From Phyllobates terribilis (lineage: Eukaryota), in NCBI RefSeq assembly GCF_046119375.1, contig NW_027362771.1:155434001-155498000 (forward strand): a stretch of DNA of 64,000 bases, given 5' to 3'. Of this stretch, positions 4,401-57,907 are shown piece after piece; positions within the stretch are counted from its first letter, which is position 1; every line of letters starts with the position of its first letter. The notes below the pieces were generated by a model. It did no database searches. It was not told the origin of the DNA and was given only the letters and a program-made list of their open reading frames with translations. The position numbers were made by a program, and so were the translations under genes.

Positions 4401-4465
4401 ACCAATTTATTATATATTTTAGGCTACGGCGCAGTGCAGAAACCATACGCAGGACTACAGCGCAG

Positions 4466-5279
4466 AGCAGACGGTATACAGACACAGTAAACAGGACTAC
4501 GGCGCAGAGCAGACTGTATACAGGCACAGTATACAGGACTATGGCGCAGAGCAGACGGTATACAGGCACAGTATACAGGACTATGGCGCAGAGCAGACGG
4601 TATACAGACACAGTATACAGGACTATGGCGCAGAGCAGACGGTATACAGACACAGTATACAGGACTATGGCGCAGAGCAGACGGTATACAGACACAGTAT
4701 ACAGGGCTATGGCGCAGAGCAGACGGTATACAGACAGTATACAGGACTATGGCGCAGAGCAGACGGTATACAGACAGTATACAGGACTATGGCGCAGAGC
4801 AGACGGTATACAGACACAGTATACAGGACTATGGCGCAGAGCAGACGGTATACAGACACAGTATACAGGACTATGGCGCAGAGCAGACGGTATACAGACA
4901 CAGTATACAGGACTATGGCGCAGAGCAGACGGTATACAGGCACAGTATACAGGACTATGGCACAGAGCAGACGGTATACAGGCACAGTATACAGGACTAT
5001 GGCGCAGAGCAGACGGTATACAGACACAGTATACAGGACTATGGCGCAGAGCAGACGGTATACAGACACAGTATACAGGGCTATGGCGCAGAGCAGACGG
5101 TATACAGACAGTATACAGGACTATGGCGCAGAGCAGACGGTATACAGACAGTATACAGGACTATGGCGCAGAGCAGACGGTATACAGACACAGTATACAG
5201 GACTATGGCGCAGAGCAGACGGTATACAGACACAGTATACAGGGCTATGGCGTAGAGCAGACAGTATACAGACACAGTA
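4466..5279. repeat. 42-bp minisatellite, left array (ACAGGACTATGGCGCAGAGCAGACGGTATACAGACACAGTAT, with 40-bp variants)
   Basis: About 19-20 tandem units read directly; degenerate copies extend left to ~4420. Confidence 0.97.
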
Positions 5280-6359: not shown

Positions 6360-8807
6360 ACAGACAGTATACAGCACTATGGCACAGTGCAGACGGTATA
6401 CAGAGTATACAGGACTATGGCGCAGAGCAGACGGTATACAGGCACAGTATACAGGACTATGGCGCAGAGCAGACGGTATACAGGCACAGTATACAGGACT
6501 ATGGCACAGAGCAGACGGTATACAGGCACAGTATACAGGACTATGGCACAGAGCAGACGGTATACAGGCACAGTATACAGGACTATGGCACAGAGCAGAC
6601 GGTATACAGGGCTATGGCACAGTACAGACGGTATACAGGCACAGTATACAGGACTATGGCGCAGAGCAGACGGTATACAGGCACAGTATACAGGACTATG
6701 GCGCAGAGCAGACGGTATACAGGCACAGTATACAGGACTATGGCACAGAGCAGACGGTATACAGGCACAGTATACAGGACTATGGCACAGAGCAGACGGT
6801 ATACAGGCACAGTATACAGGACTATGGCACAGAGCAGACGGTATACAGGCACAGTATACAGGACTATGGCGCAGAGCAGACGGTATACAGGACTATGGCA
6901 CAGAGCAGACGGTATACAGGCACAGTATACAGGACTATGGCACAGAGCAGACGGTAAACAGGCACAGTATACAGGACTATGGCACAGAGCAGATGGTATA
7001 CAGGCACAGTATACAGGACTATGGCACAGAGCAGACGGTATACAGGACTATGGCACAGAGCAGACGGTATACAGGCACAGTATACAGGACTATGGCGCAG
7101 AGCAGACGGTATACAGGCACAGTATACAGGACTATGGCACAGAGCAGACGGTATACAGGCACAGTATACAGGACTATGGCACAGAGCAGACGGTATACAG
7201 GCACAGTATACAGGACTATGGCGCAGAGCAGACGGTATACAGGCACAGTATACAGGACTATGGCGCAGAGCAGACGGTATACAGGACTATGGCACAGAGC
7301 AGACGGTATACAGACACAGTATACAGGACTATGGCACAGAGCAGATGGTATACAGGCACAGTATACAGGACTATGGCACAGAGCAGACTGTATACAGGAC
7401 TATGGCACAGAGCAGACGGTATACAGGCACAGTATACAGGACTATGGCACAGAGCAGACGGTATACAGGCACAGTATACAGGACTATGGCACAGAGCAGA
7501 CGGTATACAGGCACAGTATACAGGACTATGGCACAGAGCAGACGGTATACAGGACTATGGCACAGAGCAGACGGTATACAGGACTATGGCGCAGAGCAGA
7601 CGGTATACAGGCACAGTATACAGGACTATGGCGCAGAGCAGACGGTATACAGGCACAGTATACAGGACTATGGCCCAGAGCAGACGGTATACAGGCACAG
7701 TATACAGGACTATGGCACAGAGCAGACGGTATACAGGCACAGTATACAGGACTATGGCACAGAGCAGACGGTATACAGGCACAGTATACAGGACTATGGC
7801 ACAGAGCAGACGGTATACAGGCACAGTATACAGGACTATGGCACAGAGCAGACGGTATACAGGCACAGTATACAGGACTATGGCACAGAGCAGACGGTAT
7901 ACAGGCACAGAGCAGACGGTATACAGGCACAGTATACAGGACTATGGCACAGAGCAGACGGTATACAGGCACAGTATACAGGACTATGGCACAGAGCAGA
8001 CGGTATACAGGCACAGTATACAGGACTATGGCACAGAGCAGACGGTATACAGGCACAGTATACAGGACTATGGCACAGGGCAGACGGTATACAGGCACAG
8101 TATACAGGACTATGGCACAGAGCAGACGGTATACAGGACTATGGCACAGAGCAGACGGTATACAGGCACAGTATACAGGACTATGGCACAGAGCAGACGG
8201 TATACAGGCACAGTATACAGGACTATGGCACAGAGCAGACGGTATACAGGCACAGTATACAGGACTATGGCACAAAGCAGACGGTATACAGGCACAGTAT
8301 ACAGGACTATGGCACAGAGCAGACGGTATACAGGCACAGTATACAGGACTATGGCGCAGAGCAGACGGTATACAGGACTATGGCACAGAGCAGACGGTAT
8401 ACAGGACTATGGCACAGAGCAGACGGTATACAGGCACAGTATACAGGGCTATGGCGCAGAGCAGACGGTATACAGGCACAGTATACAGGACTATGGCGCA
8501 GAGCAGACGGTATACAGGACTATGGCACAGAGCAGACGGTATACAGGCACAGTATACAGGGCTATGGCGCAGAGCAGACGGTATACAGGCACAGTATACA
8601 GGACTATGGCACAGAGCAGACGGTATACAGGTACAGTATACAGGACTATGGCACAGAGCAGACGGTATACAGGACTATGGCACAGAGCAGACGGTATACA
8701 GGCACAGTATACAGGGCTATGGCACAGAGCAGATGGTATACAGGCACAGTATACAGGACTATGGCACAGAGCAGACGGTATACAGGCACAGTATACAGGA
8801 CTATGGC
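6360..8807. repeat. 42-bp minisatellite, right array (ACAGGACTATGGCACAGAGCAGACGGTATACAGGCACAGTAT, with 29-bp short units)
   Basis: About 60 tandem units; explains the spurious 640-920 aa ORFs in three plus-strand frames. Confidence 0.97.
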
Positions 8808-8809
8808 TC

Positions 8810-9340
8810 AGCACGTCAGCAGTAAAGTGCGGGCCGGGCAGGACACGTGTGGACATGACAGGCGCATGCTGGCGCTCCGTACACTGACACGTTGCTGGCG
8901 CACTATGTGACACGTAGCCCCTTCATGTAGAACTCAAAAGTGGAGCTCGTAGCCCCCAGAGCCAGGTGCGGTCTCCGGTCAGCGGACGCCTTTCATATCG
9001 TATAGAAAACCACATGGTGTAAAGATGCTGAACCTGTTGAGCCCTCTCCTACAGTCCTGCCCCGCACTCCTCACCTTCCCCGCCGATTACTGCTCCATAA
9101 GGCGGCTACACCTCCCAGCCGCCGCCGTTGTGCCAAACCGGCCTATCGTACGTGATCTCCGCTGCACCGCGTATGACGTCACAGCGTCGGTTGATCTGCA
9201 CGCCAGGACAGAGGAAACGCACTAGCGAACTACACGTTCAGCAAGTCGGCGCGTTCCAGGGCGTGTCCTCATGACGTAGAGACGCCTGCGACGCCTACAG
9301 GAGTGCTCCGTGGTTGTAGCAGGTTAGGACTAGGCGTGTC
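8810..9340 (-). promoter_or_regulatory. CpG-island promoter of XPOT with a full CRE (TGACGTCA, 9174-9181) and a CRE-like TGACGTAG (9272-9279)
   Basis: Local CpG enrichment against a CpG-poor background; motifs read directly; position matches the exon 1 donor. Confidence 0.7.
9075..9160 (-). other. XPOT: Probable non-coding first exon of XPOT, containing the 3-codon uORF ATG GAG CAG TAA (9098-9087)
   Basis: Strong donor AAG|GTGAG at 9075/9074 inside a CpG-rich island upstream of XPOT exon 2; the 5' boundary (TSS) is approximate. Confidence 0.7.
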
Positions 9341-40321: not shown

Positions 40322-42199
40322 TCAGTGTGAAACCTGGGCCTGTTTCGATAAACTCAAAAGGGATATCCTGGCAGGAATGGTGGAAAGACACACACGAAGC
40401 TCTTCCTCAACAGTTCTCAGTTTCTCCCTGTTTTTAGTTTTTATCACAGTCAAGCTTGAGAAGCCCAGCTCACATAGATATGTGGTTGAAAATGGGAGCA
40501 ATGTCAAAATAGCTTTGTTGGCCAGAATGGGGAACTCCTTGGCAACAGATAACCAAAAACTGTCCAAAGGAAGATCAGCAAACTTTAGCTTTAAACCGCG
40601 ATCTTGCTTCAGTTCAACGAGTTCCTCTTGCTCCTTTAAAGTCATGTCCTTTCCAGCAACGGATAATGAGCTGTATGGGTCCCTAACCCAGTCAAGGCAT
40701 TCTGTGAAGGCTGAAGAGAAATAGAACGATAACTTCTCCTCAAGAGTTTTCAAATGTCTGCCAATCGCTTCGCACATTGCAGTAGTATTGTCATCATGCA
40801 GTTTCTCGGTGAGTGGGAACATCTGAAGGTTGCCACCCTACACATGTTGTTGCCAGAGCTGCACCTTTAAACGGAATCCGTTCATTTTATCAGTGCTTGT
40901 AAGCAGGTTTTCATTTCGACCTTGCATCCGTGTGTTTAGTTCATTCAGATATTGAAATATATCAGCCAGGTATGCCAGCTTTGCACACCACTCATCACTT
41001 GCAAGCAGCTTTGAATAATCGGACCTCTCGTTTGTAAGAAATATTTTAAGTTCCTCTCGCAACTCATACACACGGGCCAGCACTTTGCCGCGTGACAGCC
41101 ACCTGACCTCCGTGTGGAGCAATAAGATTTTATGTTCCGCTCCCATTTCTGTACACAAAGACGCAAATAAGCAACATCTCAAAGGTCGCGTCTTCACAAA
41201 GTTCACTATGCGCACAACATCATCCAACACAGGAGCTAGATCTGCTGGTAAGGTCTTTGCAACGAGGGCCTCACGGTGCAAGAAACAGTGGGTAGCAAGA
41301 ACATCTGGGTTTCTTTCTTTAACCCTACTTACAAAGCCTTTGATGCGCCCGACCATGGCTGCGGCTCCATCAGTGCAGACACCTGTGCAGATTTCCCATG
41401 TAAGTCCACTTTTATCAAGATATTCCGATGTGACTTGGAATATTGCCTCTCCTGTTGATTTTTCTGTCAGTGCCTTGCAAAATAGGAAGTTTTCTCTAAT
41501 GGCTTCACCATCCACATAACGCACATAGGCCAACAACTGACAATGTCCACTGATATCCGTCGACTCATCAAGTTGCAAGGCAAATTTCTTACTGATGCGC
41601 ACCTTTTCCAAAACAACTGTTTCAATGTCCGCAGACAAGTCATCAATCCGTCTGGCAATTGTGTTATCAGAGAGAGGCACTTTAGCTATCTCTTTAGCTG
41701 CTTCAGGGCCAAGCATCTCATTTACAATAGCTTTACAAGCTGGGAGTATTAATGTTTCTGCCACAGTGTGGGACTTTTTTGATTTAGCTATGAGTTCAGC
41801 AACAAGGTAGCTAGCTTTGAGGGCTCTCTCATTTACCTTTGTGCTTTTTCTCAAAAAAGTTGCCCCTTTCTCATTGTTTGTACGTAAGCGTACAAAATAC
41901 TCCATCGGTTTATTTTGAACGGAAGGGTGTTTCGTTTGGAGATGGCGTTTAAGTTTGCTTGGCACCATAGCGCTATTGGAAAGCTTCTCACCACACACCA
42001 AGCACAGTGGTGTTGGTGCTGTCGCATCCCCAGTGGAAGTAAATCCAAATGAAAGATAGCTTTCACTGTATTGCCTTGAGCTCACCGTCTTGTCTTTTTT
42101 CTTTTGTCGAACTCTCATACTAGGGCCTTCATTTGGGTTAGAATTGTGTCCAGGGTCCTGTTCGGCATTTGCCTTTTCCATTCTCAAATACTTCTCCAT
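40322..42199 (-). pseudogene. hAT transposase (~625 codons) with a single in-frame TAG at 40840-40838
   Basis: BED finger (CLVC...LKRHLQTKH), [25 protein letters not shown] and CELGFS motifs; the 462-aa and 166-aa ORFs are the same frame. Confidence 0.93.
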
Positions 42200-42267
42200 C
42201 ACTGCTGAGATAGTGTGCGCAGCCACACACTAAAATAGAAGAGTATTACATTATCTGCCACACTTAA

Positions 42268-42665
42268 AGGACCTCTGCTAGGCATATTTCATTCCTGAGA
42301 GCTTAAAAAGCAGCTCTCGTGGTGACAAGAAGCTGATTTAAACCCCCCAAGAGTGAACTTCGCGAGAGCTGTATGTGTGTGATAATAACTTATATTACTA
42401 CGGTCTGCATTTCCTGCTTGAATTGACACTAGTGACGTAGCACTCAGCTTTCTCTATAAGTAGAATAGAGCCGGCTGCCAAGTGCTATGCCACTAGAGTC
42501 AATTCAAGCAGGACATGACTGCTGAAGAACGGTACTAATATCATTTATTATTCCATACATACAACTCTCACGGAGTTCACTCTTGGGGGTTTTAAATCAG
42601 TTTCGTACCACCACAAGAGCTACTTTTTTAGCCCTCAAGAGTGAAATATGCCTGGCAGAGGTCCT
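42268..42665. mobile_element. Diverged T2/Kolobok-like fold-back MITE nested in the hAT 5' region
   Basis: TTAA|AGGACCTCTGC...GCAGAGGTCCT|TTCA; ~190-bp imperfect inverted arms. Confidence 0.65.
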
Positions 42666-44729
42666 TTCAATAAATAATTTATTTTAAAAAAGTGAAATAA
42701 AAAAGGATAACAGTCCCACGTATATGAGCACATGATTATCAGCATCATATACTGTGGTGATGTTCACTGTACAGCGCCACAGTATATGGTGCTGATTATT
42801 ATGTGGCTCATATACTGCAATATAAAGGGGTACAATGAGAAGTACTATGGCCATGAGGCCAGAGTACAAGTGCCAGCTCATATACTCAGCATATGAGCTG
42901 GTACTTGTAGTACTCCAGCCTCATGACTATAGTATTTCTCATTTTACATTTCTCATTGTTATATGCAGTATACTGCTGGAGTACTAAAAGTACCAGCTCA
43001 TATGCTGAGTATTCTGCCAACAGTTCATATACTCAGGCAAAAGCTCATATAGTCAGCATTATTGGCGGGCATTACCTTGGCGGCGGGCAAATGCGAGAGT
43101 CTCTCCGCTCTCAGGATGACGCGCCGGCCTCGGTGACGTCATTAAGTCGCGCGAGGTTCAAAGCTTGCGCATGTGTTATTGTACACGTCTCCTACATTTT
43201 AAGAAGGCGTGACTGCGTATCAAGCGCATTGCCGGGAAACAAAACACAGGGGGCACCATAGTTTGGGGAACTTTCCCCGCGGCACACCCGACCATGTGTC
43301 TGCCGCGGAACACTGGTTGAAAATCACTGCTCTATACTGTACAATACAAGTCAGAGGGAAGGCTCAGAAGATGTCTGGGTGTCTTTTATGAGTTAATTGC
43401 TAGCGTTTTTGCTTTAGAAATGATTAGTGGCTTCTTCATTGTTGAATGGAATTAAAAAATTGTCTGGAAAATGACAGTACAAAAGATGCCACAGAAACCT
43501 AAAAAAACACCAGTTGTCAAAAACATTGAAAAAGCACCTGGGAAATTACCCAAAAACACTAAATAACGACACATCCAATTTACAAGAAGCCAGAGAAAAG
43601 GAGTTACCTGAAGCGTCTTGAAACAGTCATTTTTGGCCTCTAAAAAAAGCACAACTTTGTGTGAACATACCCCAAAAGTTCAGCCAGTCTACCCCGTCCA
43701 TTTAAAAATGGATGAGAAAAAAAATTTGATGCAATACAGATGACACAGAATTGAAAAATGGACCTTTTTACATGGATGTAAAAAGACATGGATGTGTGAA
43801 TGTCGCCTAAAATTGGTATTATCCTGCAGCAGGCAGCTATGAATCCATTAATGGATCTGTCTGGCTGCATCCACATGGGATGGAATTTTTCCGCTTTGCT
43901 GCAGTTCCACAATGAAATGTGTATGTACACTGTGTGCAGAATTATTAGGCAAATGAGTATTTTGATCACATGATACTTTTTATACATGTCCTACTCCAAG
44001 CTGCATAGGCTTGAGAGCCAACTACCAATTAAGTAAATCTGGTGATGTGCATCTCTGTAATGAGGAGGGGTGTTGACTAATGACATCAACACCCTATATA
44101 AGGTGTGCTTAATTATTAGGCAACTTCCTTTCCTTTGGCAAAATGGGTCAGAAGAGAGATTTGACGGGCTCTGAAAAGTCCAAAATTGTGAGATGTCTTG
44201 CAGAGGGATGCAGCAGTCTTGAAAATTTCCAAACTTTTGAAGCGTGATCACCAAACAATCAAGCGTTTCATGGCAAATAGCCAACAGGGTCGCAAGAAGC
44301 GTGTTGGCCAAAAATAGCGCAAAATAACTGCCCATGAATTGAGGAAAATCAAGCGTGAAGCTGCCAAGATGCCATTCGCCACCAGTTTTGCCATATTTCA
44401 GAGCTGCAACGTTACTGGAGTATCAAGCACAAGGTGTGCGATACTCAGGGACATGGCCAAGGTAAAGAAGGCTGAAAAACGACCACCTTTGAACAAGAAA
44501 CACAAATTGTCAAGAATGGGCTAAGAAATATCTTAAGACTGATTTTTTCAAAGGTTCTATGGACTGATGAAATGAGTGACTCTTGATGGGCCAGAGGCTG
44601 GATCAGTGAAGGGCAGAGAGCTCCACTCCAACTCAGACGCCAGCAAAGTGGAGGTGGGGTACTGGTATGGGCTGGTATCCTCAAAGATGAACTTGTGGGA
44701 CCTTTTCGGGTTGAGGATGGAGTGAAGCT

Positions 44730-45141
44730 TGTTAGGATCATTCAGCCATGGAGGGTCCTTGTTGGAGTCGGGGTATCCCCGTAACAAGAAATACACAGAC
44801 ACGTAGTGTATAATCAAGTACTGGGAAGCCCCTGAGCGCGTCTGCCTCTATAGGTGCAGTCCCTTTATTTATACTAATATTCATAATTTGTTGTCAGACA
44901 TGCGCAGTAAAATGTCTTTGTTTCACAAGCGGCGAAGTGATGATTCATAACAGTGGAATTTTGATAAGAAAGTTTCATAAAAAGTGTTAATTCATAGCAG
45001 TAGAAGGTTACTGAGACAGCTAAAAACAAGTTACAATCTAGTTTCTGGGCGTCAGTCCAAATGTCCAGATAAGGGAAGAATAACTTCATCTGTGTCTTAC
45101 ATCGTAGTCTTGCGTGAAGTATCACTCCCATCATCCTCTCA
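44730..45141 (-). repeat. ERV 3' LTR (412 bp)
   Basis: TGAGAGG...CCTAACA on minus; preceded by the PPT AAAGGGGGAC; no difference found from the 5' LTR. Confidence 0.97.
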
Positions 45142-45151
45142 GTCCCCCCTT
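45142..45151 (-). promoter_or_regulatory. Polypurine tract
   Basis: AAAGGGGGAC directly abuts the 3' LTR start. Confidence 0.85.
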
Positions 45152-45205
45152 TGATTCTTCCTTATGGACTTTTGGTAGAAGACCTGGTCCGGGAGTTCTT
45201 TTCTT

Positions 45206-46528
45206 TCATATTCTTGAGTCCGTGTTACAAAGCTTATTTATGCATATTAAAATAATTTTTAATCCTATTTTAAACACTACATATATGACTACTATAATTA
45301 GCACAATCTGTAATATACCTTGCAGAATTCCAGCCACCCAACCTCCAATACCCTTAAACCAGTTCTTTGGGTTGAGAAAGGAGAAGGTGTCTGACCACCA
45401 GCTATCTTTATTTTGATCATTGTGTCTGTCATATTCGTCCCACATCTGCATCAACATTGGATACACAAAGAAAGTGCTGAATATTTTATTAGGAATTCCC
45501 ATTTGGACCACATGTGGCCTACCTGAAGGTCTAGGCGAGTTGTCGGCTGCTCTTTTGTATAGTGTGTGTTTAGGTACTGCTTGCATATCTACCTGCTGAT
45601 TCTGAACTATAAATGTGGCCGGTGTTAAGCGTCCTAGAGTACATGCACCTTTTATTCCTACTGGGAGCCATTTGTATGCTCCATTTCCACAAATCCAGAA
45701 GGTTCCTTCAGGCAGATCCCATATTGCAGAGTGTTGGAGCACCAACCTATGTACCAAATCTAAAAATTTAGATACATTCTGAAGTATACACCAAGGGGGT
45801 TTTTGACCTAATGGACTACAGTATCCTGCATCTGGATTTTCACAAGTCGGTGTACCTGGGTCATATGCACTTGACTCATTACATAATATATTACCTGGTA
45901 TCTTTGAACATGTATCATTGTTTCCATCGGGGAATAATTGTGAATATTTCCAACCATTATTGTGTATGTATTTTTCTACTATATCAGGTTTAAAAGGTTG
46001 AGAAGAAGATACTGTGCTACTAAAACTGAGTTGTATATTTTCTGTAGGAATTAACCCTAAGTCTGTTAGTCCCGTCTTATTTCTAGGAACCCATACACCT
46101 CCTTTAAACGCTAAATATTGTAAGTTGTTTATTTTTCCGGTCATATTACCTTGCCACCAGGGAAATCCCACCCACCCCACAACTGGGATGGCAACAGTGG
46201 TGTTCCATAATCTAGAATTAACGGTTTGGTTATTTGCTAATTTGTCTGAGCAATTAGTCCATGTAAACACTTCCTCAGGGGTCATGGGTACGGCCAGGAA
46301 GGGTATGCTCGTGGCTGATATTGGAGAATGCGTACAAATCCAACAGTCTGCTATTTTCTGTCCGCCATCGAGCAGCCCGTTTACCAATGTCTCATGATGT
46401 TTTATAAATTTATTATCTGTAGGTTTTGGGGAACTTAGTTTATCCCACAGGTCTCCCTGATCTATCGTTATAGCTAACACAAGTACAATCACCACTATTT
46501 CTTTTTGCAATGGCTTGCATGTACCCAT
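45206..46528 (-). CDS. env: Retroviral envelope ORF (440 aa), gamma-type, lacking most of the TM ectodomain
   Basis: Hydrophobic signal peptide, CWIC motif, LYKR cleavage site, W-rich membrane-proximal segment and TM anchor; no immunosuppressive domain or CX6CC. Confidence 0.85.
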   Translation of the reverse strand: MGTCKPLQKEIVVIVLVLAITIDQGDLWDKLSSPKPTDNKFIKHHETLVNGLLDGGQKIADCWICTHSPISATSIPFLAVPMTPEEVFTWTNCSDKLANNQTVNSRLWNTTVAIPVVGWVGFPWWQGNMTGKINNLQYLAFKGGVWVPRNKTGLTDLGLIPTENIQLSFSSTVSSSQPFKPDIVEKYIHNNGWKYSQLFPDGNNDTCSKIPGNILCNESSAYDPGTPTCENPDAGYCSPLGQKPPWCILQNVSKFLDLVHRLVLQHSAIWDLPEGTFWICGNGAYKWLPVGIKGACTLGRLTPATFIVQNQQVDMQAVPKHTLYKRAADNSPRPSGRPHVVQMGIPNKIFSTFFVYPMLMQMWDEYDRHNDQNKDSWWSDTFSFLNPKNWFKGIGGWVAGILQGILQIVLIIVVIYVVFKIGLKIILICINKLCNTDSRI

Positions 46529-47820
46529 GCTGATTTTCCTTCCAATTTTACTGCAGTTGGAGTTGTCAATAACACCTGATATGGACCCTCAAATCTGGGT
46601 TCTAGCGTTCTTCTGTTATGTCTTTTTACGTAGACTTCGTCTCCTGGTTGCAGCTTGTGCGTTCCCTCAATGGAATCTGGATCTGGAATGGAAGAGAACA
46701 CTAAAGAGTGTATTTTAGACACATGCTTACATAAATTTTGTACATAAGCAGTTAAGCTTTCAGTTTCTAACATTAAAGTCTGTGGGAAATACAATCCTGT
46801 ATTGGCAACTCTACCAAACAATATTTCATGGGGGGTGAGTTTGCTCTTTCCCTGGGGGGTGTTTCTGACTGAATACAATGCTATTGGGAGACACTCAGTC
46901 CATGGTTTCTGTGTTTCTGCCATGGCTTTCTGTATTTTTAACTTAAGTGTTCCATTCATTCTCTCAACCTTACCAGAACTCTGTGGGTGGTAAGGGGTGT
47001 GTAGTTCACTTTTTATACACATTTTCATTACATTCTGAAAGATCTCTCCAGTAAAATGTGTACCTCTATCTGACTCGATCACTTCTGGGATACCATAACG
47101 GGGTACCAGTTCATGTGCTATTTTTACTGCAGTGACTTTAGCCGTGGCTGTATGAACTGGATAAGCCTCTGGCCACCCCGAAAACATGTCCACACATACC
47201 AGTACATACTCATAGTGTCCATGCTTAGGCATCTGGATGTAATCGATCTGAAGTCTCTGGAACGGATATAGTGGTCTTACATGGTGCTTCTGGGGGGTCT
47301 TAACAGTCTGTCCTGGATTGTGGGCTAAACAGATTTCACAAGAACCACATTTTGCTCGAGCTACCTGGCCGAACCCTGGGGCTAACCACTTCTGTCTGAC
47401 CCTCTGTATCATACCGTTTGCAGACACATGTGTAGGTCCGTGGGCTTCACTGACCACAACAGGGTACCATGCTCGGGGGAGACAAAGCTCATCTCCTTTT
47501 CTCCATAGTCCTTCTTTTTCTTCTGCCCCCTGTTTCTGCCACTCTTCTTTTTCTTCTCTACTCACCTGCTGGTGGGCTTCTTTGAGCCGTGTAATTAAGT
47601 CAAATTCTGATACTGCACTAATAGTGTGGTCAGTTGTCAGAGGTTTTACTGCAGCTCGCTTAGCAGCCTTGTCGGCTCGGTCATTACCCCTAGCTATCTC
47701 GGTGTCGAGTCTTACATGTGCAGGTACTTTTATTACTGCTACTTGTTTGGTTGAGGCAGCTGATTCTAGGATTTGTCTAATCATTTGTCCATGTTTTACT
47801 GGTTGACCTGAAGCTGTCAT
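46495..47820 (-). CDS. pol: pol 3' part: RNase H C-terminus plus integrase
   Basis: HHCC finger (HGPTH...CGSC), QIDY / ESDRG / VERMNG D-D-E triad, GPY module; separated from RT by a frameshift. Confidence 0.93.
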   Translation of the reverse strand: MTASGQPVKHGQMIRQILESAASTKQVAVIKVPAHVRLDTEIARGNDRADKAAKRAAVKPLTTDHTISAVSEFDLITRLKEAHQQVSREEKEEWQKQGAEEKEGLWRKGDELCLPRAWYPVVVSEAHGPTHVSANGMIQRVRQKWLAPGFGQVARAKCGSCEICLAHNPGQTVKTPQKHHVRPLYPFQRLQIDYIQMPKHGHYEYVLVCVDMFSGWPEAYPVHTATAKVTAVKIAHELVPRYGIPEVIESDRGTHFTGEIFQNVMKMCIKSELHTPYHPQSSGKVERMNGTLKLKIQKAMAETQKPWTECLPIALYSVRNTPQGKSKLTPHEILFGRVANTGLYFPQTLMLETESLTAYVQNLCKHVSKIHSLVFSSIPDPDSIEGTHKLQPGDEVYVKRHNRRTLEPRFEGPYQVLLTTPTAVKLEGKSAWVHASHCKKK

Positions 47821-49700
47821 GTAACCTCTAGCTCTCCATATACATCCAAAATCATGTACAATACCATATGCATATCAGTAAAAATATTAGCGGTTTTTTC
47901 TTTTGCTAACTGTAATGCTCGTATTAGAGCTAATAGTTCAGCTTCCTGGGCTGAACAGCTGGCCTGCATTGGCTCAGCTTCAATAACATCATAATCTGAT
48001 ACAATGGCATAACCTGTATGAAAGTTACCAGTTTCATCTGCATACCTACTACCATCTATATACATATGTAGGTCTGGATTGTCAAGAGGGGTGTCCTGTA
48101 CATTAGGTAGCCCTTGTGTTTCTTGTTCTATACACTGTAAGCAATCATGTATTATATTGTCTTGTTCGTGGTATTGTAAAAAATTTTCATCTTCGTCTTC
48201 CTGACCTCCTTCCACTCCCCCCTTTGTCTCTAGTGGTAACAGAGTGGCTAAATTTAGAGACAATATGCGGCGAAAAGTGAGGTTTGGTGGCATTAGTAAG
48301 GAGCATTGTAATCTAAGATGTCTAGCCATTGAAATGTGTTTTGGCAATACCTGATTCAGTATGCCATGTACATCATGTGTAGTTTGTACTATTAAGGCAT
48401 GGTCTAGTACTATTTCTGAGGCTTTTTCTACCAAAAGAGAGACAGCTGCTACTACTCTGACACATGATGGTGCAGCTTTGGTAACATTATCTAATTGAGC
48501 AGAATAGTAATGGACAGGTCTTTGTTTATTTTCATGTTTCTGTGTTAGTACTCCTGTAGCATGATTAGACATTTCCGCAGCCATTAATTGGAATGGTTTG
48601 GCGTAGTCTGGGATTCCCAAGGCCGGGGCTGACATGAGACCTTTCTTGAGGTCTTGAAAGGCTATGAGCGCTGATTCAGTTAACTGAAAAGGCTCGATTT
48701 TTAAACAATCATATAGAGGTTGCATAAGCTGACTAGCATGTATAACCCATTGTCTGCAGTGTGATACTATTCCCAAAAATGCTCTTAATGTTTTGTAGTT
48801 CTTGGGAGGAACAAGATCTCTAATGATTTTTAGTCTGTCGGCGGTGAGGTGCCGAATACCTTGTGAAATGCAGTGTCCTAGAAATACTACCGTAGTCATA
48901 CAAAGTTGTACTTTTTTCTTGTTAACTTTACAGCCCATGTCTGCTAGAAATATTAACAATCTTATTGTGTTGCTGTTTGCGGACTCTTGAGCAGGGGCAC
49001 ATAACAATAGGTCATCAACATATTGGAGAATTACAACCTCATCCGTAGGTTTGAAATTTTGAAGAACTGATCTCATAGCTTCTGAGTACAAGGTAGGTGA
49101 ATGTATCATACCCTGTGGTAATCTTGTCCATGCTAATTGTCTATTCTTAAATGTAAATGCAAACAGTTTGTAACAGTCTGGGTGTAATGGTACTGAAAAA
49201 AATGCATTTGATAAGTCTATGACAGAAAATACTCGTGCTGTTGCTGGGATCTGTGATAGCAACGTGTGTGGATTTGGCACAACAGGAGTAATAGGTTCCA
49301 AAATTTTATTTATCTCTCTTAGATCATGTACCATCCGGTACCTAGCAGCTGACCCCTCAGTAGATTTCTTTTTTACGGGGTACAACGGTGTATTGGCTGG
49401 TGACTTTACTTCTATCAGTACTCCAGTTTTTAGATAATCTTTTATCTGTTCTCCTATGGCGTGTTCTTGTTGGGCACTAATAGGATACTGTCTCAATTGG
49501 GGTAGTGTCACACCTGGAACAGGAGTGACTTTTACAGGAGCTATTGGCATTAGTCCTACATCGGTGTCATGTTGTGCCCATAATTTTTCTGGTACCTCAG
49601 AAAGATCTAAAATAATTTGGGTAGGGGCAGGATCTTTCTCATCCTCTAAGGCTTGGACTTTTACAATGTTTTCTAGAGACTCTTGGTCATCAGGCACCAA
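47817..49700 (-). CDS. pol: pol 5' part: reverse transcriptase, tether and RNase H N-terminus (protease absent)
   Basis: TPLYPVKK, DLREIN, DLSNAFF, LPQG, YVDD, FLG and IDGS...AQEAEL...TD motifs. Confidence 0.95.
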   Translation of the reverse strand: MVPDDQESLENIVKVQALEDEKDPAPTQIILDLSEVPEKLWAQHDTDVGLMPIAPVKVTPVPGVTLPQLRQYPISAQQEHAIGEQIKDYLKTGVLIEVKSPANTPLYPVKKKSTEGSAARYRMVHDLREINKILEPITPVVPNPHTLLSQIPATARVFSVIDLSNAFFSVPLHPDCYKLFAFTFKNRQLAWTRLPQGMIHSPTLYSEAMRSVLQNFKPTDEVVILQYVDDLLLCAPAQESANSNTIRLLIFLADMGCKVNKKKVQLCMTTVVFLGHCISQGIRHLTADRLKIIRDLVPPKNYKTLRAFLGIVSHCRQWVIHASQLMQPLYDCLKIEPFQLTESALIAFQDLKKGLMSAPALGIPDYAKPFQLMAAEMSNHATGVLTQKHENKQRPVHYYSAQLDNVTKAAPSCVRVVAAVSLLVEKASEIVLDHALIVQTTHDVHGILNQVLPKHISMARHLRLQCSLLMPPNLTFRRILSLNLATLLPLETKGGVEGGQEDEDENFLQYHEQDNIIHDCLQCIEQETQGLPNVQDTPLDNPDLHMYIDGSRYADETGNFHTGYAIVSDYDVIEAEPMQASCSAQEAELLALIRALQLAKEKTANIFTDMHMVLYMILDVYGELEVT

Positions 49701-49710
49701 AATTTGGACT

Positions 49711-49914
49711 CTACCATCCTTTGTCTCTTACCACTCCTGCTTTTCTAGCCCGAATGTCCTCCCATAGTTTCCTGTTAAACCTGTCATGCCTTGCTACCTG
49801 AAAAGTTTTGCAAACTTTCCCTAAATTCTTAGTTGCTTCTACACCACACCTTTCTTTCACGATTGTATAGACATCTTGTTCATCATTTGTGGTCTTAGTC
49901 TGTTTGTTGCCCAT
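49711..49914 (-). pseudogene. gag: gag N-terminal (matrix) remnant, 67 aa
   Basis: MGNKQT myristoylation-type start; ends in TAG immediately after the junction to protease-distal pol sequence. Confidence 0.75.
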
Positions 49915-50132
49915 TTTTCCTGACTATTCTTACCTTAGGAGGCTTTTTGGGTTAGATAAAATATATTCTATATTTTACCTTTCCTCGTTACCTATTCTGT
50001 CCTAAGGAGCCAGTATCTTGTTGCCCATTTTTCCTGACTATTCCTACCTTAGGAGGCTTTTTGGGTTAGATAAAATATATTCTATATTCTACCTTTCCTC
50101 GTTACCTATTCTGTCCTAAGGAGCCAGTATCT
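49905..50132 (-). repeat. 114-bp tandem duplication spanning the ERV splice donor and gag ATG
   Basis: Copies at 49905-50018 and 50019-50132, differing at only a few positions. Confidence 0.92.
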
Positions 50133-50732
50133 GAAACGGTTTCTCTGGACCGTTTTGTCTGAAGTGTAGAGTAATTCTAACACACATATATATGGCAACA
50201 AGGGCAAGACCAACAATACATAAAATGAACCATACAGTCTCCATTATATATCGTGTCCCTGGAGTATTATCATTACTTCCATGGGCTCATTCTGTCAATC
50301 TCTTATCCGTCAAAAAGGAGGACAAAGGTTCGGGAGTTAAGCGTGAGCGAAGGTTTCCCCGAAAGGACACAACCTTATGACTCAGTTAGGCAATCTCCGT
50401 AATACTTATGTCATCTACCTTAGTGCGGCTTATGAGGCTATTCCCGACATCCACATCTCTTTCATACCATCCGTTTCATAACCTTCTCTGACCTCTCCTT
50501 CGGCAGATCCTACAGTATATACATGAATGACCCGAGCTATAGGTATCCTTCTCTACTAGTTCCTCAATCCCAACACAAGATATGCATGAAATTTACGGAC
50601 TATCGCAGAGCAGATGTAAGAGAACTAACAGTGTCTCTTACCTGGCCAGGTTTGTCATCTGCTGTTCCGATGTCCCAATCTCAGCGGTTACTCGTGCCGG
50701 TCGATGAACTTGAAGGAATACGCAGACCTCGG

Positions 50733-50750
50733 GTCCCTGTTCGGGCGCCA
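50733..50750 (-). promoter_or_regulatory. Primer-binding site complementary to tRNA-Lys3
   Basis: TGGCGCCCGAACAGGGAC, the same 18-mer as the HIV-1 PBS, 5 nt downstream of the 5' LTR. Confidence 0.92.
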
Positions 50751-50755
50751 GGAAA

Positions 50756-51167
50756 TGTTAGGATCATTCAGCCATGGAGGGTCCTTGTTGGAGTCGGGGT
50801 ATCCCCGTAACAAGAAATACACAGACACGTAGTGTATAATCAAGTACTGGGAAGCCCCTGAGCGCGTCTGCCTCTATAGGTGCAGTCCCTTTATTTATAC
50901 TAATATTCATAATTTGTTGTCAGACATGCGCAGTAAAATGTCTTTGTTTCACAAGCGGCGAAGTGATGATTCATAACAGTGGAATTTTGATAAGAAAGTT
51001 TCATAAAAAGTGTTAATTCATAGCAGTAGAAGGTTACTGAGACAGCTAAAAACAAGTTACAATCTAGTTTCTGGGCGTCAGTCCAAATGTCCAGATAAGG
51101 GAAGAATAACTTCATCTGTGTCTTACATCGTAGTCTTGCGTGAAGTATCACTCCCATCATCCTCTCA
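50756..51167 (-). repeat. ERV 5' LTR (412 bp)
   Basis: Reads identical to 44730-45141; followed by the PBS; TSD AGCT at 51168-51171. Confidence 0.97.
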
Positions 51168-52021
51168 AGCTCAACTCCCAGACCTAATGCCAGTTTCTGG
51201 AAGACATCTTCTTCAAGCAGTGGTACAGGAAGAAGTCTGTATCGTTCAAGAAAAACGTGATTTTCATGCAGGACAATGCTCCATCACATGCATCCAAATA
51301 CTCCACAGCGTGGCTGGCCAGTAAAGGTCTAAAAGAAGAAAAAATAATGACATGCCCCATAGAGAACCTGTGGTCCATCATAAAATGTGAGCTCTACAGG
51401 GAGGGAAAACAGTGTCTGGGAGGCTGTGGTGGCTGCTGCACGCAATATTGATCGAAAACAGATCAAGCAACTGACAGAATCTATGGATGGAAGGCTGCTG
51501 AGTGTCATCATAATGAAAGGTGGCTATATTGATCACTAATTTTTTTTGATTTTTGTTTTTGAATGTCAGAAATGTTTATTTCTAAATTTTGTGCACTGAT
51601 ATTGGTTTAGCTGGTGAAAATAAACAAGTGAGATGGGATTATATTTGGTTTTTATTAAGTTGCCTAATAATTCTGCACAGTAATAGTTACCTGCACAAAC
51701 AGATATCCTCCTAAGATAGTCAAATCTAAAAAAAAAAAAAAAAAAAACACTCCAGCTTTCAAAAATATTAAGCTTGGATATTTGAGTCTTTTGGGTTGAT
51801 TGAGAACATAGTTGTTGATCAATAATAAAAATAATCCTCTAAAATACAACTTGCCTAATAATTCTGCACACAGTGTATATAGGGATGTCGCCTCCTAAGC
51901 ACTGTATGGTAGTAGCATGGCATAACCACCGTATAGCAACGTGCCCTTATACAGCAGGTGTGAAATCTAAACATGTTGTATCCTTCCGGATTGATTCTGT
52001 GGCATTATGATGCAGAAAGGT

Positions 52022-55000
52022 TGAGGAGGAAGTGAGGGATAGAAGCTTAGAGGCAGCTGAGACGGAAGAGTCAATGGGGATGTTAAAGTTTCCCATGAGG
52101 ATAGTGGGGATGTTAACGGAGAGGAAATGAAGTAGCTAAGTGGTGAAGTGGTCAACGAAAGTGGTAGTTGATCCTGAGGGGCAGTAAATGACAGCCGGTT
52201 GGAGGGGGAGTAGATGCGCACACAGTGCACTTCAAAAGAGGGCAGAGTAATTGAGAGCGGCAGTGGGATATGGGTGAAGGAGCAGATATCTGAGAGGAGG
52301 AAACCTATTCCTCCATCGTGCTTGCCGGTGGGGCGGGGGGTATTTGAGACGTGGAATCCGCTGTACGAAAGTGCAGCAGGAGAGGCCGTGTCGGAGGGGG
52401 TGAGCCAGGTTTCAGTGATGCCGAGGAAGGAAAGCTTGTTAGTGAGGAAGAGGTCGTGAATGTAGGAAAGTTTGTTGCAGACGGAGCGAGCGTTCCATAG
52501 AGCTCCTGTTAGAAGGACTGGGGAAGTGGGGGCTGGGCGGATAGGTATAAGGTTAGAAGGGTTACGAGAGTTTGGGATAGATCGTGGGTAGGAGGTGGAA
52601 GTAATTGTAGGGATGTGGAGAGATGTCGCCGGCAGTGAGGAGGAGCAGAGAAAGCGTTAGTAGGTGGGAGCAGGAGAGGGCATGAGGTGGCTGTCTTACT
52701 CAGTGGTCTTCCACACCCACCCACAAAGACGGCCACACACTGGACTTCTCTAACTCACCTCTCCCTCTCTCTGACCACAACCTACTTACATTCTACCCTC
52801 TCCTCTCCAGGGCAACAATCCCCACTCCACAAACTTGCATACCCTTGCAGAAATCTCAAACACCTTGACTTACACTCACTCTCTGAATCCCTCCTCCCTC
52901 TTACAGACATTAGTTCCTTACATGATGCAGATGTTGCTGCCACTTTATACAACACAACAGCTGCAGCTCTCGATTCGGTCGCCCCCCTCACACATACCAA
53001 AGCTCGCTCAATCAACAGACAACCCTGGCACACCAGCCTAACTAAAGAACTGTGACGGGCCTCCAGGGTTGCTGAGCGTAGATGGAAAAGGTCCCACTCC
53101 ATTGAGCACTTCATCGCATTCAAACAGTCCCTCACTACCTTCAAATCCACACTCACTGCAGCAAAACAAACATACTTCGCATCTCTCATATCCTCCCTGT
53201 CTCACAACCCCAAACAGCTATTCAACGCCTTCAATTCTCTCCTTCGTCCCCCAGCACCTCCTCCCTCTCCTGTTATTTCAGCCGAAGACTTTGCCTCATT
53301 CTTCAAGCTGAAGATTGACACCATCAGACAAAGCGTTTGCCTAAAGCCCCCACAGCCCTTCCCCACACCTACTCAACCCTCCTCCTCCAAAACCACCACC
53401 TCCACTATTACGAAAGGTCAACTTTCCCCTTTACTCTCCAAATCACACCTCACCACCTGTAAACTTGACCCAATCCCGTCTCACCTCATCCCAAACCTTA
53501 CCACTATCTTCATCCTACCTCTTCAACCTGTCACTAACAACTGGTGTCTTCCCCTCATGCTTCAAACATGCCTCAATCACACCCATTCTCAAAAAGCCCT
53601 CCCGTGACCCATCCTCTCTGACTAGCTATCGCCCCATATCACTTCTCCCCTATGCCTCAAAACTACTGGAACAACACGTCCATTCTGAGCTGTCCTCCCA
53701 CATCTCCTCCTGCTCCTTCTTCGACCGCCTACAATTTGTTTTCCGACCGCACCATTCTACTGAAACTGCACTGACTAAAGTCACCAACGACCTACTAACT
53801 GCCAAATCTAAGCGACACTACTCTGTCCTCTTCCTCCTAAACCTGTCATCTGCCTTCGACACAGTGGACCATTCCCTCTTACTATAAACTCTCTCATCTC
53901 TCGGCATCACAGACTTGGCCCTATCCTGGATCTCCTCATACCTAACAGAGAGGACATTCAGTGTCTCCCACTCACACACCACCTCCTCATCTCGCCCACT
54001 ATCTGTCTGTGTCCCCCAAGGTTCAGTTCTAGGACGTCTGCTCTTCTCCATCTACACCTTAGGCCCGGGACAGCTCATAGAGTCTCACGGCTTTCAGTAT
54101 CACCTCTATGCTGATGACACACAGATCTACCTCTCTGGACCCGATATCACCTCCTTACTAACCAAAATCCCACAATGTCTGCTATTTCATCCTTCCTTCC
54201 TCTCGGCTAGATTTCTAAAACTTAACATAGACCAAACAGAATTCATCATCTTTCCGCCATCTCATTCACCCCCCCCCCAACTGACCTATCTATCAACGTC
54301 AATGGCTGTCCACTCTCCCCAGTCCCTCAAGCTTGCTGCCTTGGGGTAACCCTGGACTCTGAACTCTCCTTCAAACCACATATCCAAGCCCTTTCCACTT
54401 CCTGCCGACTCCAACTCAAAAATATCTCCCGGATCCGCATGTTCCTCAACCATGAATCTGCAAAAACACTAGTGCACGCCCTCATCATCTCCCGCCTTGA
54501 CTACTGCAACCTCCTGCTCTGTGGCCTCCCTTCCAACACTCTCGTACCCCTCCAATCCATCCAAAACTCTGCTGCCCGACTAATCCACCTGTCCCCCCCC
54601 CGCCCCCCGCTATTCCCTGGGCCTCTCCTCTCTGTCAATCTCTTCACTGGCTCCCCATTGCTCAGAGACTCCAGTTCAAAACCCTAACCATGGCATATAA
54701 AGCCATTCACAACTTGTCTCCTCCATATATCTCTGACCTAGTCTCCCGTTACATACCCGCGCGCAACCTCCGATCCTCACGATCTCCCCTCTTATCTCCT
54801 CCTCCCACAATCGCATACAAGATTTCTCCTGTGCTTCCCCCCTACTCTGGAACTCTCTACCCCAACACATCAGACTCTCGCCTACCGTGGAAACCTTCAA
54901 AAGGAACCTGAAGACCCACCTCTTCCGACAAGCCTACAACCTGCAGTAACCACCGCTCCACCATACCGCTGCACGGCCAGCTCTGACCTCACCTACTGTA

Positions 55001-56263: not shown

Positions 56264-57907
56264 CAGTTAGGTCCATATATATTTGGACAGAGACAACATT
56301 TTTCTAATTTTGGTTCTAGAAATTACCACACTGAATTTTAAACAAAACAATGCAGATGCAGTTGAAGTTCAGACTTTCAGCTTTCATTTGAGGGTATCCA
56401 CATTAAAATTGGATGAAGGGTTTAGGAGTTTCAGCTCCTTAACATGTGCCACCCTGTTTTTAAAGGGACCAAAAGTAATTGGACAATTGACTCCAAGGCT
56501 ATTTCATGGACAGGTGTGGGCAATCCCTTCGTTATGTCATTCTCAATTAAGCAGATAAAAGGCCTGGAGTTGATTTGAGGTGTGGTGCTTGCATTTGGAA
56601 GGTTTTGCTGTGAAGTAAACATGCGGTCAAAGGAGGTCTCCATGCAGGTGAAACAAGCCATCCTTAAGCTGCAAAAACAGAAAATACCCATCCGAGAAAT
56701 TACTACAATATTAGGAGTGGCAAAATCTACAGTTTGGTACATCCTAAGAAAGAAAGCACTGGTGAACTCATCAATGCAAAAAGGCCTGGCCGCCCACGGA
56801 AGACAACAGTGGTGGATGATCGCAGAATAATATCCATGGTGAAGAGAAACCCCTTCACAACAGCCAACCAAGTGAACAACACTCTCCAGGAGGTAGGCGT
56901 ATCAATATCTAAATCTACCATAAAGAGAAGACTGCATGAAAGTAAATGCAGAGGGTTCACTGCACGCTGCAAGCCACTCATAAGCACCAAGAATAAAAAG
57001 GCTAGACTGGACTTTGCTAAAAAAACATCTAAAAAAGCCAGCACAGTTCTGGAAGAACATTCTTTGGACAGATGAAACCAAGATCAACCTCTACCAGAAT
57101 GATGGAAAGAGAAAAGTATGGCGAAGGCGTGGTACAGCTCATGATCCAAAGTATACCACATCATCTGTAAAACACGGCGGAGGCAGTGTGATGGCTTGGG
57201 CATGCATGGCTGTCAGTGGCACTGGGTCACTAGTGTTTATTGATGATGTGACACAGGACAGAAGCAGCCGAATGAATTCTGATGTATTCAGAGCCATACT
57301 GTGTGCTCAGATCCAGCCAAATGAAGCCAAACTGATTGGTCGTCGTTTCATACTACAGATGGACAATGACCCAAAACATAAAGCCAAAGCAACCCAGGAG
57401 TTTATTAAAGCTAAGAAGTGGAATATTCTTGAATGGCCAAGTCAGTCACCTGATCTCAACCCAATTGAGCATGCATTTCACTTGTTAAAGACTAAACTTC
57501 AGACAGAAAGGCCCACAAACAAACAGCAACTGAAAACCACCGCAGTGAAGGCCTGGCAGAGCATCAAAAAGGAGGAAACACAGTGTCTGGTGATGTCCAT
57601 GAGTTCAAGACTTCAGGCAGTCATTGCCAACAAAGGGTTTTCAACCAAGTACTAGAAATGAACATTTTATTTACAATTATTTAATTTGTCCAATTACTTT
57701 TGGTCCCTTTAAAAACAGGGTGGCACATGCTAAGGAGCTGAAACTCCTAAACCCTTCATCCAATTTTAATGTGGATACCCTCAAATGAAAGCTGAAAGTC
57801 TGAACTTCAACTGCACCTGAATTGTTTTGTTTAAAATTCATTGTGGTAATGTCTAGAACCAAAATTAGAAAAATGTTGTCTCTGTCCATATATATTTGGA
57901 CAAACTG
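56264..57907 (+). mobile_element. Full-length Tc1 transposon with frameshifted transposase (ATG 56621 to stop 57655)
   Basis: TA flanks, ~230-bp TIRs, WTDETK / MDNDPKH / [11 protein letters not shown]34E motifs spread over three frames. Confidence 0.93.

Follow-up and report, generated by a model that had tools for sequence, protein, structure and literature searches.

A young class I endogenous retrovirus of Phyllobates terribilis with identical LTRs and a disabled genome, probably mobilised in trans

Trans-complementation of defective endogenous retroviruses (ERVs) has been documented mainly in mammals, and the provirus described here would extend it to a frog, Phyllobates terribilis. The provirus lies on the minus strand at 44730-51167 (6,438 bp) of a 64-kb stretch of the genome, called the window below (assembly GCF_046119375.1, contig NW_027362771.1, positions 155,434,001 to 155,498,000). 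Inherited disabling lesions are an accepted signature of trans complementation, as in canid ERV-Fc (PMC6407205). The canid CfERV-Fc1(a) elements of that study are, like the frog element, young class I proviruses with identical long terminal repeats (LTRs), and they carry a common env deletion and frameshifts that were ascribed to trans complementation; they differ in belonging to a mammalian gammaretrovirus lineage, for which a large number of loci have been compared and intact pol and env donors are known, whereas here there are one locus and four Env records. The cattle ERVK[2-1-LTR] D-type proviruses (PMC10924933) are about 6.8 kb long with identical LTRs and no functional genes, and are mobilised in trans, but their central segment is swapped rather than deleted, and their helper and de novo insertions have been demonstrated. 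The mouse intracisternal A-particle (IAP) element I-delta-1 (PMC1331978) lacks 1.9 kb of gag-pol and depends on complementation in trans, and differs in being a class II element with a known helper and demonstrated activity. ETn/MusD and koala recKoRV are named in PMC10924933 as further systems of this sort. The frog provirus works like I-delta-1, the cattle D-type and canid ERV-Fc, and is a member of none of them. The cattle ERVK is a class II element.

A preliminary description of the locus, made from the sequence alone, reported two 412-bp LTRs without a difference seen by eye and an intact target-site duplication (TSD), primer-binding site (PBS) and polypurine tract (PPT), and these observations held. 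Alignment of the LTRs gave 412 identical bases out of 412, with identity ending at both LTR borders. The features of an integrated provirus are all present: paired LTRs with sense-strand ends TG..CA, a 4-bp TSD on both sides, an 18-nt PBS of the Lys3 type, a PPT just ahead of the 3' LTR, and the order gag-pol-env. The recipient is a Tc1-like transposon, whose transposase frame runs unbroken across the insertion site once the TSD is counted a single time (the flanks were translated separately), and this fixes the provirus boundaries independently. The empty-site sequence suggested earlier as a genotyping marker is this same Tc1 transposase, a very abundant repeat in this frog, and is insufficient alone to identify the locus. 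The window contains no N, and no further pieces of this ERV occur elsewhere in it. L1-mediated retroposition was ruled out by the full LTRs, the 4-bp TSD and the missing poly(A) tail. The spacing between LTR and PBS is five bases (50751-50755), where two are usual, and the spacing at the PPT end is two. The leader also holds a hydrophobic open reading frame (ORF) of 42 codons (50119-50244, minus strand), possibly an accessory or glyco-Gag-like remnant, for which Pfam gave nothing above the cut-off.

Five lesions were found in the provirus. Three had been recognised before and all three are real: the loss of the remainder of gag together with the protease, a frameshift in RNase H, and an 83-residue deletion of the core of the Env transmembrane subunit (TM). 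Two had been overlooked, a one-codon gap in integrase and a 114-bp duplication at the gag start. The Gag remnant is an N-terminal stub of 67 residues with its stop at 49711-49713, out of frame with pol, and similarity to pol begins at 49718-49724, past the protease domain of relatives. The stub matches the N-terminus of a Ranitomeya gene-model protein (31% identity, E 7e-11). The integrase core is one codon short compared with three of three relatives. From gag start to env stop the provirus spans 4,709 nt, against an average of 7,129 nt reported for amphibian retroviruses in PMC12690878, so roughly 2 kb would be missing. This copy has no capacity for Gag, protease or Pol, while its cis signals are intact. 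A likeness of the stub to F-box proteins, drawn from an ESM Atlas cluster (129 of 256 shared features), was treated as chance. In the Ranitomeya variabilis model LOC143766999, too, the gag N-terminus is followed directly by the last part of the protease, with the break close to the start of the window's deletion; the cause may be an intron placed by gene prediction or a deletion that arose in parallel.

The main weight of the argument lies in the sizes of the lesions and in an env junction common to several copies, the junction being the strongest point. A search with the window Env gave 24 matches among 3,262 candidates, one of them at 99% identity. The cluster of that match consists of four named Phyllobates terribilis RefSeq proteins on three scaffolds (XP_073518477.1, XP_073518775.1, XP_073518776.1 and XP_073523558.1), which are 98.6-99.4% identical to the window Env. 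Of these sister records one is complete, two stop at residue 419 and the fourth stops at residue 308, and all five known Env sequences stay open to at least residue 308. The copies differ by 1-7 residues and are therefore distinct sequences. Of 46 fetched Env proteins, 28 were used in an alignment, in which the 83-residue segment, including the CX6CC region, is complete in 24, shows the same gap in three, and lies downstream of the end of one. The deletion is seen in none of the 24 more distant relatives and in all three sister records that reach the junction, on two scaffolds. A lesion common to sister copies points to inheritance, which supports the copying of an already defective genome. 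Deletion junctions unique to the locus, named in the preliminary description as a finding that would speak against its proposal, are not what was seen for env.

The Env of this copy would be expected not to fuse because of the known role of the TM core, as described in bioRxiv 10.1101/2021.11.23.469661. The dibasic cleavage site without a canonical upstream Arg was considered as a further lesion, and is not one, since it is family-wide. Between the Env copies and the window (45209-46528) there are 10 variable sites, all single-base, of which nine are transitions and six are A/G; two neighbouring codons are altered together in one copy. The sample is too small for the A/G excess to show editing in an RNA phase.

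Zero differences in 412 bp limit LTR divergence to at most 0.73% (95%), which gives an age bound of about 0.7-3.5 My at substitution rates from 5e-9 (assumed) to 1.03e-9 (PMC12690878). The earlier proposal of a recently active retrovirus has this age bound behind it, which does not demonstrate present-day activity. It had also been argued that three lesions are unlikely to arise before a single LTR substitution. If indel-to-substitution ratios are assumed to lie at 0.05-0.15, the chance that three indels, whatever their size, precede the first LTR change is P 0.02-0.21, which makes their number weak evidence by itself; for five indels P is 0.001-0.07. The argument stands for size, since three events of at least 100 bp before any LTR change have P <1e-3 over the assumed ranges. 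There are 2 mismatches in 114 sites between the two units of the tandem repeat and none in the 412 bases of the LTRs (conditional P 0.047), which suggests that the duplication predates the insertion. The lack of premature stops fails to distinguish between the readings (P0 0.10-0.79).

Altogether, this is probably a non-autonomous class I ERV copy, mobilised from an already defective source by the proteins of a related element. Its ends are of the true integrase type, its cis signals are intact, and its env deletion is common to other copies. The RNA of the source copy would already have carried the env deletion, and probably most of the other lesions too. This defective RNA would have been primed with tRNA-Lys3, and packaged and reverse transcribed by the Gag, protease and reverse transcriptase (RT) of the related element, whose integrase would then have inserted the copy into the old Tc1 transposon no more than 0.7-3.5 My ago. 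The remaining four lesions are taken to be older than integration, the sister copies to be separate insertions, and a helper presumably exists, which may have been infectious or have moved within germ cells. An infectious helper is not required by the loss of Env alone; a sibling with a defective env would be enough if its Gag-Pol worked. The preliminary proposal that the defective genome integrated as it stands, through a replication-competent helper, gains from the env deletion common to three sister records, and no such helper was among the 166 proteins fetched. Its term "satellite-like" does not fit. A satellite virus or RNA is by definition unrelated in sequence to its helper, and this element derives by deletion from an ordinary ERV family.

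Several results weigh against mobilisation in trans. Among the 166 fetched proteins only the four sister Envs reach 80% identity, so none is a candidate for the cognate helper. The RT query (proteins of 349-1113 aa, best 120 of 225 matches) had a top identity of 65%, and the query with RNase H and integrase gave four matches among 645 candidates for longer proteins, the best at 68%. The best intact Env is 68-69% identical, and no closer intact Env was found in these searches. The gag stub had no match among 1.84 billion representatives, being a short query of low power. An exact look-up of three window proteins in the protein collection found none of the three, and the negatives on the helper are weak because annotation misses most ERVs, as the absence of the window's own proteins illustrates. 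Only one of the five lesions, that in env, is seen in sister copies, which are known as Env records without gag or pol. The indel rates behind the arithmetic are assumptions, and under allelism or duplication at the DNA level zero LTR differences would still have P ~0.10 given the env divergence among copies. Finally, all four sister records are on scaffolds of 1.4-7.2 Mb, whereas the scaffolds of 12 of the 13 other ERV-like records from P. terribilis exceed 100 Mb (Fisher P 0.007, a post hoc contrast of records that are not independent).

Small scaffolds are the pattern expected from duplication or haplotigs. A single provirus may have decayed in place and then multiplied at the DNA level, segmentally or in tandem, or the sisters may be alleles or haplotigs, with LTR identity due to chance or gene conversion. 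The scaffold pattern and the P of about 0.10 for unchanged LTRs fit such a history, as do two sister records with consecutive accessions on the same scaffold, which are one residue apart and share their truncation. It would however need all of the lesions, three of them large, to be in place before duplication without any LTR change, and the provirus retains 1,535 codons without a premature stop. The family is also found on three scaffolds, which exceeds the two haplotypes of one locus. This explanation is judged unlikely but not negligible.

It is likewise unlikely, at a slightly lower estimate, that only the env deletion is family-wide, and that an env-defective, Gag-Pol-competent source moved itself inside cells while the damage to this copy dates from its final reverse transcription or later, with no helper in trans. 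The env deletion is indeed the sole lesion shown to be common to copies. In addition, residues that a relative conserves on both sides overlap at the gag/pol junction, an arrangement that would suggest short microhomology as in template switching by RT. Such a history nevertheless needs four more indels, either all within one round or along a branch that carries just one private Env change, where four private indels by DNA-level decay have P 0.004-0.07. It also has to accommodate repeat units that already show 2 mismatches, and a Gag stub that retains its Met-Gly start, whereas intracellular movers often lose membrane targeting. That the LTR identity or the lesions are artefacts of assembly or polishing is very improbable: dendrobatid genomes are hard to assemble and their repeats collapse (PMC12208295), but three other annotated records have the same env junction, near-identical repeat units 114 bp apart escaped homogenisation, and the TSD agrees exactly with the host Tc1 frame in a window without N.

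A bolder reading can also be imagined, which seems unlikely. The defective element and its helper may form a pair that is still mobile, with insertions polymorphic in living frogs, and the surface subunit of the open Env, whose fusion core is gone, might be released or remain on display, acting as a decoy that blocks the receptor for its own helper and making this a defective-interfering amphibian provirus.

An RT tree was built from the window and 45 named proteins taken from the best 120 of 225 RT matches, with unnamed and redundant records left out. The window is sister to a Ranitomeya element inside a frog-only clade of 11 rows (support 100/99), separate from the clade with porcine endogenous retrovirus (PERV). 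The RT has YVDD, and its best PDB matches, RTs of the murine leukaemia virus type, have E of about 1e-107 to 1e-109, compared with 1e-41 for the foamy type. As judged from its sequence, the RT is of class I type, outside the gammaretrovirus clade, and groups with frog elements. In the Env tree the neighbours of the window are again Ranitomeya elements, and the intact P. terribilis Envs (57-61% identity) fall elsewhere. The Env has the gamma-type features CWIC and a membrane anchor; the region of the immunosuppressive domain (ISD) and CX6CC, present in 24 of the 28 aligned proteins, is deleted here, and PF00429 is found in a relative.

The nearest proteins in both trees belong to Ranitomeya (XP_069599234.1 for Env, the Gag-Pol model LOC143766999, and XP_077125510.1), with the same gag N-terminus; they differ in host genus, in amino-acid identity (65-74%) and in their intact Env TM core. 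By description, the provirus resembles the anuran epsilon-like ERVs (the RMERV/Xen1 clade, ERV-Epsilon-Dti and ERV-Epsilon-Lpi of PMC12690878, and AnERV1-10 of bioRxiv 10.1101/2024.07.05.601823), which are frog class I elements with epsilon-like Pol, gamma-type Env and LTRs of 400-500 bp. The LTRs of ERV-Epsilon-Lpi are 100% identical as well (PMC12690878), and the representatives described in both sources differ in having intact ORFs. From the account in PMC12690878, the provirus would belong to the RMERV/Xen1 group. Strict Epsilonretrovirus, that is walleye dermal sarcoma virus (WDSV) and walleye epidermal hyperplasia virus (WEHV), is described in bioRxiv 10.1101/2021.11.23.469661 as having accessory genes and an Env that is not gamma-type. 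Epsilonretrovirus in that sense was ruled out because the Env family is gamma-type and because neither the leader nor the region downstream of env holds an intact accessory ORF.

The amphibian case is new, while the mechanism is an established one and identical LTRs have been published for frog ERVs before; the finding would be plausible rather than surprising to a specialist. Phyllobates is not named in the main texts of PMC12690878 or the AnERV preprint, nor in the one supplement searched, and supplements or tables of the AnERV preprint may list related families. In the draft-genome paper (PMC12208295) the string "retrovir" does not occur. No published account of this family, or of an amphibian pair of helper and defective element, was found in a literature search that covered few subscription journals. 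The provirus draws attention to a young ERV family in a genome that is very large and rich in repeats, and its insertions may serve as population markers if they are polymorphic.

Table 1. Features of the provirus and its insertion site, in window coordinates.
Feature	Position	Strand	Comment
5' LTR, 412 bp, TG..CA	50756..51167	-	412/412 match to 3' LTR
PBS, tRNA-Lys3 type, 5 nt inside the LTR end	50733..50750	-	18 nt, same as the 18-mer labelled Lys,3 in PMC1084362
Leader, with splice-donor-like site near 50643 and presumed packaging signal	49915..50732	-	Pfam: nothing above cut-off
114-bp tandem duplication across the gag start, 2 mismatches; places a short upstream ORF before the gag ATG	49904..50131	-	
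gag stub, 67 residues, N-terminal Met-Gly, then stop; remaining gag and protease deleted, junction ~49714-49721	49711..49914	-	
pol frame 1: RT (LPQG, YVDD), connection, first part of RNase H; untranslatable via gag	47820..49727	-	
Short out-of-frame deletion within RNase H; frames part at ~47874	47860..47880	-	
pol frame 2: remaining RNase H, then integrase with zinc finger, core and C-terminal domain; one codon missing near 47017-47019	46495..47874	-	
env, open frame of 440 residues: signal peptide, CWIC, dibasic cleavage site, membrane anchor, tail; 83-residue in-frame TM-core deletion at ~45436/45437	45206..46528	-	
PPT	~45144..45161	-	
3' LTR, poly(A) signal at LTR position 273	44730..45141	-	
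TSD, left and right copies	44726..44729 and 51168..51171		
Decayed Tc1-like DNA transposon, insertion recipient	43929..51875	+	~1.5 kb without provirus; TA-flanked terminal inverted repeats; DDE_3 match below cut-off (E 0.01)

Two observations concern Env in other frogs. In Dendrobates tinctorius, 13 annotated Env proteins of 497-543 residues are within 90% of each other, which suggests a young intact relative family that may be ERV-Epsilon-Dti. In an Anomaloglossus baeobatrachus Env model, the segment from the end of the surface subunit (SU) into TM occurs three times over, by tandem duplication or as an artefact of the gene model.

No host gene is evident among the window's ORFs of at least 150 codons. 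At 51967-54687 and 56984-57655 there are what we take to be a broken CR1/L2-type long interspersed element (LINE) and another Tc1 transposase fragment. A transposase at 40322-42229 on the minus strand, in two long frames, is presumably hAT/Buster-like by its motifs, and a cluster of palindromic elements follows it at 42266-43012. Arrays of a 42-bp minisatellite, with 13-, 29- and 71-bp variants, are found at 4450-5279 and 6364-8811, adjoining Tc1-like sequence.

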